Assembly (NCBI GenBank): GCA_938017515.1
Contig: CALIJJ010000019.1
Location: 1,415 to 65,414, forward strand
Reading direction: 5' to 3'
From: an uncultured Pseudanabaenaceae cyanobacterium
GTDB lineage: Bacteria > Cyanobacteriota > Cyanobacteriia > PCC-9006 > JAAUQQ01
Length of the DNA: 64,000 nt
The notes beneath the pieces are model-generated. The model saw nothing but the letters and a program-made list of their open reading frames with translations. It searched no databases and had not been told where the DNA came from. Below, in pieces: positions 28,794-33,374 of the stretch. The first letter of the stretch is position 1. Each line of letters begins with the position of its first letter. The position numbers and the translations under genes are program-made.

Positions 28794-29066
28794 GGCCTGT
28801 CTACTCGTGAGGTGTTTGGGGAGTGTTTCGGGCGTTTTCCGGGGGCATTCCTTCGGGAAACAATGGGAGAGGGGATGGAAAAACGCTAGATTCAGCGTTT
28901 GGCACGCATAGTCTAGCCCAACAACCCTAGTTTTGCTCAAGTCTAATCGGGAATTGTCAAATTGCAATAGGGGACAGGCTTGCCCCGACTTATATGGGGA
29001 GACTTGCCCTGGTCGAAAGCCCGTTCCACAATAAGGAGCATTCCGCACTCCCAATCCCAAGCCTCT

Positions 29067-29756
29067 ATGCACCTTCATCCTCCAATCCATCCTCTGGAAG
29101 CGCAGCGTCTGGCCGGAGTCGAACAACAGTTAGGCTCACTACCGGTTTCCCCGGCAGAGTATGAGGTGATTCGGCGGGTGGTGGCGGTCACCGGAGATTT
29201 TGAGTTTAGCCAGTCCTTGCATTTTTCCAGCGATGCCCTGAAATCTGGGGCCGCAGCCCTGGCAGCCCGGAGCACGATTTTGGTTGATATTCCGGCGGTT
29301 CAAGTCGCGGCGATGCCGACCATCCAGGCGAGCTTTGCTAACCCGACCTACTGTTGCCTGGATGCGATCACTCGCCCCCAGCGTACAAAAACGGCCACGG
29401 CTTGGGGCTTAGAAGTGCTCGCTCCCCGTTATCCCAATGCTGTGGTGGTGGTGGGACAGACCCCCAGTACGTTGGTAACGCTGGGAGAGCTGATTCAAAA
29501 CAAAGTCATCTATCCAGCCCTTGTGATTGCGACACCTCCCCATCTGCAGATGGTGGACCACTTGAATGAGACGAACCCAGCCAGCGCTCCAATGGGTCCG
29601 GTGTTGGAGCTGCTTCAGCGGGTCGGGGTGCCCTATGTGGGGGTGTCGGGGCAGAAGGGAAATGCCATGGTGGCGATCGCCATCCTCACCGCATTGATTG
29701 AAATGACCTGGCAAGCCTATGGCCAAGACCCTCGCACTGGCATTATTTCTCGTTAG
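29067..29756 (+). CDS. cobH: precorrin-8X methylmutase (CobH/CbiC)
   Basis: Blocks VVAVTGDFEF, STILVDIPAVQVAAM and VVVGQTPSTLVTL match CobH/CbiC. Start moved to the ATG at 29067. Confidence 0.7.
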   Translation: MHLHPPIHPLEAQRLAGVEQQLGSLPVSPAEYEVIRRVVAVTGDFEFSQSLHFSSDALKSGAAALAARSTILVDIPAVQVAAMPTIQASFANPTYCCLDAITRPQRTKTATAWGLEVLAPRYPNAVVVVGQTPSTLVTLGELIQNKVIYPALVIATPPHLQMVDHLNETNPASAPMGPVLELLQRVGVPYVGVSGQKGNAMVAIAILTALIEMTWQAYGQDPRTGIISR

Positions 29757-29920
29757 CCAAATAGTCTCGCTAGATATCAAGACTATTTGGCTAAGGGGCG
29801 AATCGATGGCCTGTCGCCTGGGGCAAAGCGAAAGTGTATTCACGTATTCTGCCAAGGGCAGCTGTTGGAAGATACGTGGATGCGCCAGGGTTATTTGAAG
29901 ATGCTGTGGGCAATATAAGT

Positions 29921-30053
29921 TCAGCCAAGAGGAAAGCAGACTAGAGAGTTCTGCACAGCGAGCCTAGCTCGCTTGCGAGTCTCTAAGAAGCTAACTGTCC
30001 TTGCAGGTAATTCGCTTAGCTCCGGGGGCTTTAGTGGGCTAGGCGATTTCTTA
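29921..30053 (+). ncRNA. candidate small RNA, copy 1 of a paralogous pair
   Basis: ORF-free region. A TATAAG -10-like hexamer sits just upstream. Conserved 5' block cagccaagaggaaagca. Conserved single-stranded block aagaagctaactgtccttgcaggt. Terminal hairpin tcgcttagc...gctaggcga followed by a T-run. Confidence 0.4.
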
Positions 30054-30158
30054 ATTATCAGGTATGAGTCGCTCCAACTTTACCTGATGGTGATTTAGCT
30101 CCAGTCAGAACCAAGGGTGTTTTCTTGGACTGAGCTAGTCACCACCTCTCAACTCAGC

Positions 30159-30195
30159 AAAAAGGCTGCGACTCAATTGAGTCGCAGCCTTTTTG
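30159..30195. terminator. bidirectional rho-independent terminator
   Basis: aaaaaggctgcgactcaattgagtcgcagccttttt. Perfect 13 bp stem with A and T flanks. Confidence 0.7.
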
Positions 30196-30488
30196 TTTTG
30201 TCTTTGCTGATTGAGATATCTTTGCTGATTGAGATATTCAGGGACTGACGATACTCAAAGTTTTCAATGTCCCCATGCACTTCACGGCTTAGAAGTTACC
30301 GTAAGCCATCAAAAAGGAGGGATCCAGGAAACATCTGTAAAGGATGTATCAAATAACATGGCATAGAAACGGCTGGAAAATTCTCTCGCTCCGATCTTTC
30401 AGTAGATCAACGAATCTTGACAAACAAAGAATTTTCAAGATACGTAGAAGCGCGATGGCTGTACTCCACTGCAATTGACACAATGGTA

Positions 30489-30612
30489 TCAGCCAAGAGG
30501 AAAGCAACTCAGCAGGCCACAGACTTCATGTCTGCGACCTCTCTGAGAAGCTAACTGTCCTTGCAGGTGACTCGCCTGACTCTGGGGGCTTTATAGGGTC
30601 AGGCGATTTTTT
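30489..30612 (+). ncRNA. candidate small RNA, copy 2 of a paralogous pair
   Basis: Same 5' block and same central block as copy 1. Terminal hairpin tcgcctgac...gtcaggcga with compensatory base changes relative to copy 1, followed by tttttt. Confidence 0.4.
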
Positions 30613-30977
30613 CACACAGGCAGTCTCTAATAGAATACAGCTACTCGGCATTAATACGTATCAAATAATCTTTAATTAGAGATATTTTATACAAGATCAG
30701 CTTATCCTTTCAATCAATATTGGATTGCTATCCCTGGTTGTTCTGCTGATTCGCGCTCATTCTTCCTCGATCGAGATAATTTCTCGTTAATTCGAGAGAG
30801 GCTCTAAAGAATGTGTGTTGAAAAATACAAAATGAATTTTTTTCCACTTTTGGAACGGAGTCTCTCATGGGTATGGGAGGCTCCTTTTGGGTTTAAGTTT
30901 GGGTTTAGATTTGGGTTTAGATATTGATGGGGTCTGGGATGTGACTTTGTCTGACCTAGGCTTTTATCCCAGATAGC

Positions 30978-31008
30978 AAAAAGCGGTGGGGAAGCACCAC
31001 CGCTTTTT
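30978..31008 (-). terminator. rho-independent terminator downstream of bamA (bidirectional form)
   Basis: aaaaagcggtggggaagcaccaccgcttttt. Confidence 0.7.
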
Positions 31009-31055
31009 GCTGTCTGGCCAGATATTGTTTGGCCAGATGTTGTTTAGGTGATGTT

Positions 31056-33374
31056 CTAGAAGCGTTCGCCAATGCCGAACTGGAATCGTTGATCGCCGTC
31101 ATCCGATAGGACTGTGTAGTCGGCCCGGATCGGCCCCAGGGGAGAGCGGACGCGGACACCTAGGCCAACGCCGTAGCCGCTGCCGGGCTTCTCGCGGGCT
31201 CCGGCGGGGTTGCCAGGGACGTTGTCGCCAGTGCCAATGTCAGTGCCGAAGTCTGCAAACAGCGCGCCACCCACGAATGAAAAGACGGGGAAGCGATACT
31301 CTGCGGTGGCCTGGAGGAAGCTACGACCACTGCCGACTTCGCCTTCGCTGTAGCCACGAATGGAGTTCGCACCGCCCAAAGAAAAGGCTTCGTAGGGAGG
31401 CAAATCGCCCAAAATGGTTCCGGCTTGAACGTTGAATGCAAGGGTCTGGGGGCATTCCTCTGGACTGGGATTGTCCTTTTTGCAGCCCTCCGTGAACTTG
31501 AGATAGCGCACAGGCAGATACTGGCTGTGATTTGCCCGTAGGCGGTTCATGAAAATACTGCCAGCGCCCACGGGGACACTCTGATCGACGTTGAAGCGGG
31601 TAATGCTGCCCTGGGTCGGTTGAATGCGGCTGTTGCGGCGATCGCGCGCCAGACCCAACTGGAGCAGGACCAAGTCATCCGCATCATCACCGCTGAAGGT
31701 CAGGTCGTTGCCCAGTTCGTCCTGGGGTTCCGAATCACCATCTTGATCGCGAATGTTAACGCGCTGATATTGCAGTCCCAGAGAGCCATTCCACTCGGCG
31801 GGTTCAAAGACGTTCTTTGAGAGCGGGCGGGAGAAGCGAACACCGCCCCCTGTGCGTAGAATGCGAGGAGTGTCTCCGTTGGGCAGATCGACATCGCGAT
31901 CGCCCCCGGAATAAATCAGTGAAACGGAGCGGCGGCGGAAAGCATTGACGGTATAGCCCGTGCGGTAGGGATCGCCCTTAATCCATGGGTCGGTGTAGCC
32001 CACATCGAACAAAAATTCTCGCTGACCCAGGGTGATCTCCGACTTCAGCTTCTGATTGCGTCCCCGGAAATTGTCCTGGCCAAGGCTAATGGAGCCGAAC
32101 AGGCCATTAGACGAGCTGACGCCCCCCGTGGCACCGATGTTGCCTGTGCGTGACTCAATCACGTTGGCCACGACGATGACCTTGCGTGGATCGTCGGGAG
32201 AGGGGTCGAGGGAGAGACGCACGTCTTGGAAGAGGCCCAGGCCAAACACACGCTGCAAATCGCGTTCGGCAGAACCACGATTGAAGACATCCCCTTCCTT
32301 CAGCTGGAATTCTCGGGTGACGACGTAAGGCTTTGTGCGTCCGCGAACGGGTTCTCCGGCTTCGTCAGTGGGATTTCCGTCGGCGTCCAGAAAACGCACT
32401 TCGATGCTGTCCACCAAACCTTCGGCGATTTCCAGCGTGACCTGGCCATCCGAGCTGATCTGGGTGGCATCGACGACCTGGGCTAAGACATAGCCCTCAT
32501 CTTGATACCAGTCATTGATGCGCTTGACGCCGTTTTGCAAATCCTTGAAGTTCAGGATGCTGCCGTATTGGGGGCCAAAAGTATCTGCGATGACTTCATC
32601 GGGAAGGACCTGCGTCCCTTCGGTGACCACGCCTTGGAGCGTCGGATTGGGTTCGACAAGAAAGACAACCCGGACTCCTAGGGGGCTGTCTTCGGGGCGG
32701 AAATTAACGTTGGAGAAATATCCCGTGGCAAAAATCGCGCTGAGGTCGGCCTGGAGCTGAGAACTGGTGGTTGCCTGTCCAGGCTGGGTGCGAATGGCGC
32801 CGTAAACCGCATCTTCCAGCAGCGCTTGTTCTGGGTTTCCATCAATCCCGTCGATTTTGACCTCGGCGACGAGAACTCTGGGTTCATTGGCGTCTTCTGA
32901 AGCGGCTCCGTTGCTGGGGGCTGTGGGAGCCGTTGGAGTGGGAGCCGTTGGATTGGAGGGCGTGACCGGTGGCGTCGCTTGGGCCAGGGTCGTGGGTTGC
33001 TGCTGTCCTGTTGTTTCTGCGGGGGCTTCAGCCTGAATGCTCAGCGTTTCCAACGCTTCGATCACAGTCTGACCGCTTGATTCCGAACGTTCCACGACCG
33101 GCAAGTTTGCATGGGACTCAGAAGCCGTTGATTCAACTCCCAAGTCGGCAATCACGTCGGGATTGGGCTGCTCTCGTTCGGACCGGGTTTCCGATAGATC
33201 AGGCTGAACCTGCTGAACTTGTTCGATACGAATGTCTAGTTCTTGCTCACGTCCCAGCTCCTGGGCGACCGCGGGAGAGGCCCAGCCGGTTGCCGTTGTT
33301 GCTGCGATCGCCGCTAGCAGTGTCGGACAAAAATAGATATTGCGGTTCACTTTGCGATTCACAGTTTTATGCAC
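31056..33374 (-). CDS. bamA: outer membrane protein assembly factor BamA (Omp85 family)
   Basis: 772 aa. Signal peptide, a Pro/Thr-rich linker, POTRA-like repeats and a C-terminal beta-barrel ending in the aromatic residue F (GIGERF). Confidence 0.8.
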   Translation of the reverse strand: MHKTVNRKVNRNIYFCPTLLAAIAATTATGWASPAVAQELGREQELDIRIEQVQQVQPDLSETRSEREQPNPDVIADLGVESTASESHANLPVVERSESSGQTVIEALETLSIQAEAPAETTGQQQPTTLAQATPPVTPSNPTAPTPTAPTAPSNGAASEDANEPRVLVAEVKIDGIDGNPEQALLEDAVYGAIRTQPGQATTSSQLQADLSAIFATGYFSNVNFRPEDSPLGVRVVFLVEPNPTLQGVVTEGTQVLPDEVIADTFGPQYGSILNFKDLQNGVKRINDWYQDEGYVLAQVVDATQISSDGQVTLEIAEGLVDSIEVRFLDADGNPTDEAGEPVRGRTKPYVVTREFQLKEGDVFNRGSAERDLQRVFGLGLFQDVRLSLDPSPDDPRKVIVVANVIESRTGNIGATGGVSSSNGLFGSISLGQDNFRGRNQKLKSEITLGQREFLFDVGYTDPWIKGDPYRTGYTVNAFRRRSVSLIYSGGDRDVDLPNGDTPRILRTGGGVRFSRPLSKNVFEPAEWNGSLGLQYQRVNIRDQDGDSEPQDELGNDLTFSGDDADDLVLLQLGLARDRRNSRIQPTQGSITRFNVDQSVPVGAGSIFMNRLRANHSQYLPVRYLKFTEGCKKDNPSPEECPQTLAFNVQAGTILGDLPPYEAFSLGGANSIRGYSEGEVGSGRSFLQATAEYRFPVFSFVGGALFADFGTDIGTGDNVPGNPAGAREKPGSGYGVGLGVRVRSPLGPIRADYTVLSDDGDQRFQFGIGERF

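Follow-up and report, generated by a model that had tools for sequence, protein, structure and literature searches.

What are two similar, terminator-ended elements doing side by side in the gap between cobH and bamA of an uncultured Pseudanabaenaceae cyanobacterium? The elements, termed here units A and B, lie on the + strand within a 64,000-nucleotide (nt) stretch of contig CALIJJ010000019.1 (the window), inside a 1.3-kb gap (29757-31055) that separates a cobH/cbiC-like gene from a convergent bamA/Omp85 gene. We consider that A and B are probably two sister genes for small RNAs (sRNAs), both equipped with a promoter and a terminator hairpin of their own, and that their RNAs would act in trans; the probability assigned to this reading is roughly 0.6. 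The analysis shows that the units are under purifying selection for sequence and structure, and it establishes their strand, a gene-like promoter/terminator anatomy, and a fixed locus and copy number. Their parts in the window are as follows.

29923..30053, + strand: sRNA candidate A, about 130 nt; covariance-model match of 118 bits, E = 4e-26
30012-30046, + strand: 3' hairpin of unit A, stem tcgcttagc/gctaggcga, loop CCGGGGGCUUUAGUGG
30047-30052, + strand: tail of unit A, TTTCTT, a weak U-tract
30491..30613, + strand: sRNA candidate B, about 123 nt, architecture as in A; covariance-model match of 119.7 bits, E = 2e-26
30572-30606, + strand: 3' hairpin of unit B, stem tcgcctgac/gtcaggcga, loop UCUGGGGGCUUUAUAGG
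30607-30612, + strand: tail of unit B, TTTTTT, a canonical U-tract

The original prediction had described two paralogous copies in a region free of open reading frames (ORFs), and the ends that it gave agree with the present ones to within 2 nt. No ORF of at least 60 amino acids (aa) was found in 29757-31055 except for one overlapping the end of bamA. The two copies share a 5' block, TCAGCCAAGAGGAAAGCA, and a central block of 23-24 nt, (A/G)AGAAGCTAACTGTCCTTGCAGGT, located at 29985-30008 and 30545-30568, both of which had been recognized earlier; the central block occurs twice in the 64 kb and was not seen in any of 100 dinucleotide shuffles. Each copy ends, as had been proposed, in a hairpin and T-run, that of A being interrupted, and the T-rich tail follows the hairpin on the + strand only.

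Conservation and predicted structure of the units

Related loci (given L numbers below) were gathered through look-ups of CobH and BamA homologues and by scanning 185,579 species genomes once for an exact pattern. The units were carried by about 10 related genomes or metagenome-assembled genomes (MAGs), labelled Pseudanabaenaceae or Synechococcales and including one complete 6.1-Mb chromosome, OY970368.1, which together provided 18 distinct units, nine each of types A and B. In every carrier locus A precedes B on the same strand, in the interval from cobH to the convergent bamA. Identity of the core blocks stays at 100% even where CobH drops to 39-45% identity and the inter-unit spacers cannot be aligned. 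A covariance model, R1, was built from the family and searched against the 64-kb window and the related and outgroup loci; in the window it matched 29923-30053 and 30491-30613 only, and it detected no unit in the outgroup loci. The complete chromosome contained two pattern matches in its whole length, both at the cobH-bamA locus. The nearest outgroups, with BamA 70-72% identical, had the usual bamA-lpxC arrangement, and in more distant genomes a convergent gene lay directly after cobH.

Further scans were performed on larger collections. No match to the unit was detected among 2.9 million viral contigs, and a metagenome scan with a 3'-half pattern also returned no match. A looser pattern combining the 5' and central blocks gave 46 metagenome matches, all of them attributed to chance, with the 3' blocks present in none. 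The scanned metagenome collection evidently held no relevant samples, because a JGI contig (L016) containing a canonical unit was missed there. A match labelled 'Desulfobacter' (L008) and a minus-strand match in L013 fell within coding-like sequence and were likewise considered to be chance.

The copy number was two per genome, rising to at least three in one MAG (RU_4_20). The two genes would be siblings from an old tandem duplication: each of the two has orthologues of its own, and they differ in the context of the -10 box, the hairpin loop and the tail, and the duplication is therefore older than the clade. The figure for RU_4_20, a member of the Synechococcales, derives from a third promoter module (L005 4654-4739) consisting of a box i-like AAATTCTACGGA, a box ii GATACGTAGAACTGCC and then ...TATATACAGC, which reaches the contig end exactly at the expected start of a unit; the near-identical locus of CRU_2_2 (L012) has two units as against at least three in RU_4_20. 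Unit B of RU_4_20 (L005 4570-4614) and unit B of CRU_2_2 (L012 386-430) differ only from the hairpin onward, and unit A of L006 (6830-6870) has a B-like hairpin with a CTCTGGGGG loop and a TTTTTT tail. These apparent exchanges of 3' hairpins are suggestive of gene conversion between sibling units. In the MAG CRU_2_2 the locus was also found in two versions, on separate contigs. The A and B units of one version (L014, coverage 0.9) are identical in sequence to their counterparts in RM1_1_8 (L009), a situation that resembles a contaminated or mixed bin and not four copies in one genome.

Structure was assessed with RNAalifold, single-sequence minimum free energy (MFE) folds of the 18 units, a model-guided alignment and accessibility calculations. 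The same architecture was obtained with RNAalifold and in 17 of the 18 independent MFE folds, over unit lengths of 123-136 nt, and has the following parts, in order from the base of the 5' domain.

P1: GCC/GGU, invariant
Internal loop between P1 and P2: AA/GCA
P2: GAGGA/UCCUU, invariant
Internal loop between P2 and P3: A/AACUG
P3: AGC/GCU, invariant
P4: long hairpin, different in sequence and length in every lineage
3' hairpin: stem of 12-13 bp and loop of 12-14 nt, with an invariant 10-nt loop stretch, GGGGGCUUUA

Standard pairs occupied 98% of the alignment cells, as compared with 33-46% when the partners were slid by 1-3 columns. Compensatory double changes were present at 10 pairs: every one of the 4 pairs that form the base of P4, and 6 of the 13 pairs of the 3' hairpin. 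The observed covariation score was reached by none of 500 shuffles. The earlier argument that terminator stems which differ and yet pair perfectly reflect selection on structure is upheld by these data, and the folds also contained the different small hairpin that had been expected in the variable region of each copy. Covariation is uninformative either way for P1-P3, because these helices are invariant. Copy B had a fold z-score of -3.1. No coding signal was detected: there was no ORF conserved in or common to the units, and the indels in P4 were not multiples of three. The units combine a GC-rich hairpin and U-tract, a covariation-backed structure and a non-coding character, which are among the generic features of a terminator-ended sRNA. 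The syntenic A/B pair in about 10 genomes, the covariation and the fold common to 17 of 18 units lend support to the paralogous sRNA genes first proposed.

One element of the proposal was only partly retained. The central block had been put forward as a conserved, unpaired seed, but in the folds most of it pairs with the 5' block (GCU, UCCUU and GGU), and it is the AACUG and GCA segments within it that are accessible. Over the whole unit, invariance and accessibility coincide at A1, A5-A6 and A12, in the AACUG and GCA segments, and in the loop stretch GGGGGCUUUA, which is the longest.

Upstream boxes and 3' ends

Three boxes are present upstream of all 18 units at rigid spacing, with variable sequence between them. 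Positions in the family are relative to the predicted start.

Box i, family: consensus AGTRAATYMACG, a GT-N6-AC palindrome-like element; starts at -89/-90
Box ii, family: consensus AAGATRCGTRGWTGCGCC; starts at -53/-54 and spans -54 to -37
-10 box, family: CAYAAT-like; -12 to -7 (start -12/-13)
29833..29844, + strand: box i of unit A, AGTGTATTCACG
29869..29886, + strand: box ii of unit A, AAGATACGTGGATGCGCC; candidate activator or repressor site
29911..29916, + strand: -10-like hexamer of unit A, CAATAT
30401..30412, + strand: box i of unit B, AGTAGATCAACG
30437..30454, + strand: box ii of unit B, CAAGATACGTAGAAGCGCG region
30479..30484, + strand: -10-like hexamer of unit B, CACAAT

The -10-like hexamer in front of the 5' block, which had been picked out from two copies, is therefore conserved at fixed spacing in 18 units and is accompanied by two further boxes. 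No conserved -35 hexamer was detected in the aligned upstream regions (13-18 units), and a simple sigma-70 scan made no call at the -10 boxes of the units. Conservation in blocks separated by free spacers looks like the signature of a promoter with bound regulators. From the placement of the boxes, the predicted start of transcription is close to the A of AGCC (29923 and 30491), the A of AGCCAAGAGG, and the RNA would be 123-136 nt long. We infer that one transcription factor binds boxes i and ii, and hence that A and B would be co-regulated. Proteins of the GntR type (PlmA) may be named as a first candidate for this factor, solely on the ground of the GT-N6-AC appearance of box i. In a regulon search of the 64-kb window, no box ii or promoter-profile sites were observed other than those of the two units.

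Several identities for the boxes were examined. Readings as NtcA, HLR1, CGRE1 or LexA-like sites were rejected by pattern or by eye, and a reading as an extracytoplasmic function (ECF) sigma factor promoter, with box i as the -35 and box ii as the -10 element, was discarded on account of a spacing of about 31 nt. Box i and box ii are in part inverted repeats of one another (...CACG... / ...CGTG...), and the promoter profile also matches its own region on the opposite strand. This complementarity is real but imperfect as a possible hairpin in a longer transcript: one-sided changes break the pairing in several genomes, and no compensatory change between the two boxes was seen across the carrier genomes. 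Hence, boxes i and ii are favoured as DNA sites rather than as an RNA hairpin.

The two types differ at their 3' ends. B-type tails are uninterrupted T-runs in 9 of 9 units (TTTTTT in eight and TTTTT in one), while A-type tails are interrupted in 8 of 9 units (TTTCTT, TTCCTT or TTCTTT). Given the weak U-tract of A, partial read-through is probable, which in the window would produce an extended isoform of about 275 nt that ends at a strong terminator downstream. Such a terminator was present some 50-230 nt after A in every genome; these terminators are mostly bidirectional and unrelated in sequence (L005/L012, L006, L007, L009, L013 and L064). Two features of the window are relevant here.

30156..30197, both strands: strong intrinsic terminator between A and B; 19 pairs, with an A-run before and a T-run after
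30614..30713, strand not assigned: AT-rich region after B, conserved in blocks across the clade; conservation then stops

The terminator at 30156-30197 probably ends read-through from A and possibly also stops any minus-strand transcript crossing B. The region after B follows the block pattern TTTTTTCAC..TAAT..TAC.A....GATAAAGATTTCTT....TATA(A/C)AA and was found in relatives at L007 1755-1880 (minus strand), L009 5775-5900, L011 808-933, L013 3727-3852, L064 4083-4208 (minus strand), L006 7254-7380 and L012 262-393 (minus strand). No consensus RNA structure was found for it in the clade alignment, and a structured RNA was for that reason rejected. It contains a promoter-like site on the minus strand (30713..30684, TTGAAA-18-TAAAAT, 10/12 matches; TATACT in the L007 group). 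From a promoter at this position, an antisense RNA would run through B in the direction of the bidirectional terminator that separates the two units. The region may lie outside the sRNA system.

Mode of action, rival readings and known families

Under the sister-gene reading, each RNA would begin with a rod-like 5' domain whose base (P1-P3 and two internal loops) is invariant and whose tip (P4) evolves freely; a stable 3' hairpin would follow, carrying the invariant 10-nt loop and serving, in B, as a canonical intrinsic terminator. Regulation in trans would most likely be through base pairing with messenger RNA (mRNA) by the nucleotides that are invariant and accessible. The probable pairing sites are the loop of the 3' hairpin and the AACUG and GCA internal loops beside the anti-Shine-Dalgarno-like UCCUU; under the base-pairing model, the candidate segments for target pairing would be GGGGGCUUUA or AACUGUCCUUGC.

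A number of observations weigh against this interpretation. Pairing of P1-P3 is supported by thermodynamics alone, as these helices never vary, and the greater part of the invariant sequence is predicted to lie in helices, an unusual situation for a seed. Taken alone, copy A has a fold z-score of -1.1, which is not significant. In a target scan of 53 window genes (228 candidate start regions, three invariant segments), the best energies did not go beyond those obtained with shuffled segments. Every carrier is a MAG or a metagenome contig, and the evidence for the genes comes from DNA sequence. Finally, the promoter of unit A abuts the stop codon of cobH, so that A could also derive from the 3' untranslated region (UTR) of that gene.

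The rival that survives best is that the RNAs bind protein, as sequestering or scaffold RNAs whose invariant P1-P3 core and 3' loop are read as a shape, for titration or delivery. We regard this as unlikely, although several findings point in its direction. P1-P3 show 100% invariance on both strands in the 18 units while the neighbouring helices covary freely, which fits sequence-specific recognition of a fold; the invariant 10-nt loop of the terminator hairpin is not needed for termination alone; no target stood out in the window scan; and, for Yfr2, a role in protein binding has been discussed for purine motifs that contain GGA (PMC2662882). No candidate protein gene is linked to the units, however, the neighbours being cobH, band-7, bamA and purC, and there are only one or two motifs per RNA, unlike the sponges of the CsrB or RsmZ type. 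Invariance of both strands would also result if the 3' strand were a multi-target seed, since this would alone fix both, with the 5' strand merely matching it.

A more elaborate proposal is that the RNAs are folded particles read by a dedicated partner, either a protein or an sRNA with a UCCU motif, through P1-P3 and the G-rich 10-nt loop, and so constitute a clade-specific sequestration or ribonucleoprotein module. The GAGGA/UCCUU helix would in that case resemble a Shine-Dalgarno/anti-Shine-Dalgarno or Yfr2:Yfr1 duplex, and the convergent minus-strand promoter after B might possibly cross-regulate the module. This proposal is doubtful.

The proximity of A to cobH leads to the suggestion that the units are not independent genes, A being a structured cobH 3' UTR/terminator and B a duplicated terminator or insulator, with termination and mRNA stabilization as their only functions. 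In the window, box i of unit A comes 77 nt after the stop codon of cobH, and in L009 the two overlap; there is no canonical terminator between cobH and A, and both units end in a terminator-like hairpin. This explanation is improbable in view of unit B, which has the same boxes and 5' domain and yet is preceded by a strong terminator and not by a gene. In addition, a terminator needs neither an invariant, structured 5' domain of about 90 nt nor an invariant loop, block conservation upstream at rigid spacing is promoter-like and not UTR-like, and a third copy of the promoter is present in RU_4_20.

It is very unlikely that the units are cis-regulatory RNAs (a riboswitch or attenuator) in which P1-P3 forms an aptamer for a ligand or protein and the 3' hairpin is an expression platform controlling read-through. 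No conserved ORF lies downstream: A is followed by an unalignable spacer and then the terminator, and B by AT-rich DNA and the 3' end of bamA. There is no evident alternative anti-terminator pairing and no Rfam riboswitch match at E <= 10. The features in favour of this reading are the invariant internal loops flanked by helices, which are like an aptamer core, the hairpin and U-tract that follow directly, and the weak U-tract of A with its second terminator, which could mean regulated read-through.

A mobile or dispersed repeat, of the type of miniature inverted-repeat transposable elements (MITEs) or repetitive extragenic palindromic (REP) sequences, or a small-protein gene, is scarcely credible: there are two similar copies close by, a variable copy number and units carrying the hairpin of the other type (A of L006 and B of L005), but the units occupy one locus per genome with constant strand and order and are syntenic in about 10 genomes, they have no terminal inverted repeats or target-site duplications and are absent from the 2.9 million viral contigs, and no ORF is common to them, that through the B hairpin (36 aa in L007) ending after 11 codons in the window. 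The original prediction had itself raised a MITE-like repeat as the competing explanation; with two copies per genome on one strand at one locus, the units are not a dispersed repeat.

Comparisons were made with known RNA families. Rfam 15 at the gathering threshold detected only two transfer RNAs in the window, and at E <= 10 with permissive filters no match overlapped either unit; matches in the gap at E <= 10 were chance hits to generic terminator hairpins. Two segments, GAGGAAAG and ACUGUCC, occur also in RNase P RNA. This likeness is taken to be a coincidence, and mimicry of RNase P was rejected, because there was no RNase P match even at E <= 10. The invariant blocks were not found in the literature searched, in which there was likewise nothing relevant on cyanobacterial sibling sRNAs or on the MAG names.

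The closest known family in logic is Yfr2 (Yfr2-5 of Prochlorococcus and Yfr2a-c of Synechocystis), a group of multi-copy cyanobacterial sRNAs with two extremely conserved short stretches, a purine-rich 5' stretch containing GAGGA and a stem-borne loop, with a region between them that varies in sequence and length (PMC2662882, PMC6191309, PMC6778093). The RNAs are about 80 nt, with a conserved central loop of 12 nt (about GAAACAAGGAAA) on a long stem and a bulge at -4; a conserved promoter element, CGRE1, starts at -55 to -57, and some copies lie just 3' of a gene in the same orientation (PMC2662882, PMC6191309, PMC6778093). The 5' motif, GUGUGAGGA(G), is conserved as single-stranded and is complementary to a motif of Yfr1 (PMC2662882, primers and text; PMC6778093). 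The units share with Yfr2 the multi-copy arrangement, a conserved purine-rich 5' stretch and conserved loop with a variable middle, an upstream element near -55 (box ii at -53/-54 versus CGRE1 at -55 to -57) and, for some copies, a position directly after a gene of like orientation. They differ in being 123-136 nt versus about 80 nt, in having a 5' purine block that is predicted to be paired, where that of Yfr2 is single-stranded, and in being restricted to one small clade and one locus, whereas Yfr2 is near-universal and non-syntenic. The Yfr2 5' motif (GUGUGAGGAG, tested as GTGTGAGGA or GTGAGGA) was present in 0 of 18 units and at no site in the intergenic region; a similar CAAGAGGAAAG occurs at the 5' end of the units and is predicted to be paired. 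Neither the Yfr2 loop GAAAC(A/U)(A/U)GG nor AACAAGGAAA was present in any of the 18 units, and the CGRE1 palindrome (GTTG-N13-CAAC or GTTA-N14-TAAC, patterns derived from a verbal description) was not found in the intergenic region. The Yfr1/Yfr10 motif ACUCCUCACAC was detected in 0 of 18 units, and the full motif is absent from the window. No match to the NtcA box was obtained in a pattern search of the units and gap.

The promoter of PsrR1 (SyR1) carries the HLR1 direct repeat of RpaB; the HLR1 pattern was found neither in the intergenic region nor in the window. PsrR1 originates from the fabF-hoxH spacer in Synechocystis (PMC2662882), unlike the units with their cobH-bamA locus and lack of HLR1, and the distinction is made by promoter box and locus only. 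The original prediction, which did not recognize the elements as Yfr1, Yfr2, PsrR1 or another named cyanobacterial sRNA, is consistent with the absence of these motifs and of any Rfam match to the units.

Tandem sRNA genes are known from NsiR1, an RNA of about 60 nt present in about a dozen copies upstream of hetF and expressed from a HetR-dependent, heterocyst-specific promoter. Each NsiR1 repeat reportedly has its own regulated promoter and terminator, as Ionescu et al. are said to have described in 2010. The units resemble this 'tandem array of direct repeats' with its HetR dependence (PMC9045159, PMC4030482) in that sRNA genes form tandem direct repeats. They are unlike it in having 2-3 copies of about 130 nt, another structure, other promoter boxes and the cobH-bamA locus, and no sequence similarity was seen. 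In the proteobacteria, OmrA/OmrB, PrrF1/PrrF2 and AbcR1/AbcR2 are adjacent sibling sRNAs in the same orientation, each having a separate copy of a common regulator site and a terminator to itself; OmrA/B have conserved ends and a divergent middle, and such sRNAs expose single-stranded seeds and are Hfq-dependent. The units are comparable as an adjacent pair in the same orientation with their own copies of the boxes and terminator, but they are unrelated in sequence and host, their conserved blocks pair together, and their 3' loop is conserved. Judged by motifs and Rfam, the units appear to be a previously undescribed sRNA family of an ordinary kind, belonging to no named family.

This well-supported family would add to the cyanobacterial sRNAs a sibling pair, sometimes a triplet, whose structure is clear and whose predicted promoter has a distinctive set of three boxes. 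It also gives a handle on regulation in a clade represented by MAGs only, the boxes being of use for finding the regulator and the invariant loops for target prediction on OY970368.1. Nothing is overturned, as sibling sRNAs and terminator-ended riboregulators are familiar, the family is narrow and its hosts are uncultured; its value is as a clean new entry for Rfam-type catalogues and not as a surprise.

Neighbouring genes and spacer features

The order in each carrier locus is band-7, cobH, A, B and then the convergent end of bamA-purC, and the genes that bound the gap in the window are the following.

28980-29756, + strand: cobH/cbiC-like gene, stop codon at 29754-29756
31056-33374, - strand: bamA/Omp85 gene, convergent with cobH, its 3' end bounding the gap

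GC content in the gap is 0.37-0.50, versus about 0.57 around it. Identity to the window proteins within the clade is 76-88% for BamA, 75-83% for PurC, 65-82% for band-7 and 39-70% for CobH, and the rate of evolution of the cobH/cbiC-like gene, in the window and in its homologues, is far above that of the adjoining genes. At 29755-29792, overlapping the stop codon of cobH, lies a perfect 13-bp inverted repeat (AGCCAAATAGTCT / AGACTATTTGGCT, 12-nt loop) that is not followed by a T-run; it is not kept in relatives, and L005 has 13-nt tandem repeats (AACCTAGAATGGC-like) at this position. In the complete chromosome (L006 3023-4666), an IS200/IS605-type element with a Y1 transposase and an OrfB/TnpB-like gene is inserted between an EVE-domain gene and band-7, and is not present in the equivalent region of the window.

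Perfect or near-perfect tandem repeats were observed in the spacers of the window, comprising 18 nt x 2 at 30201-30237 (TCTTTGCTGATTGAGATA), 12 nt x 3 at 30886-30922 (TTTGGGTTTAGA) and 15 nt x 2.3 at 31011-31045 (TGTTTGGCCAGATAT). A terminator-like hairpin on the + strand (GGAGTCTCTCATGGGTATGGGAGGCTCC + TTTTGGG) is located at 30857-30884, about 245 nt past unit B and ahead of the terminator of bamA itself, and could be the end of a third, poorly conserved + strand transcript.

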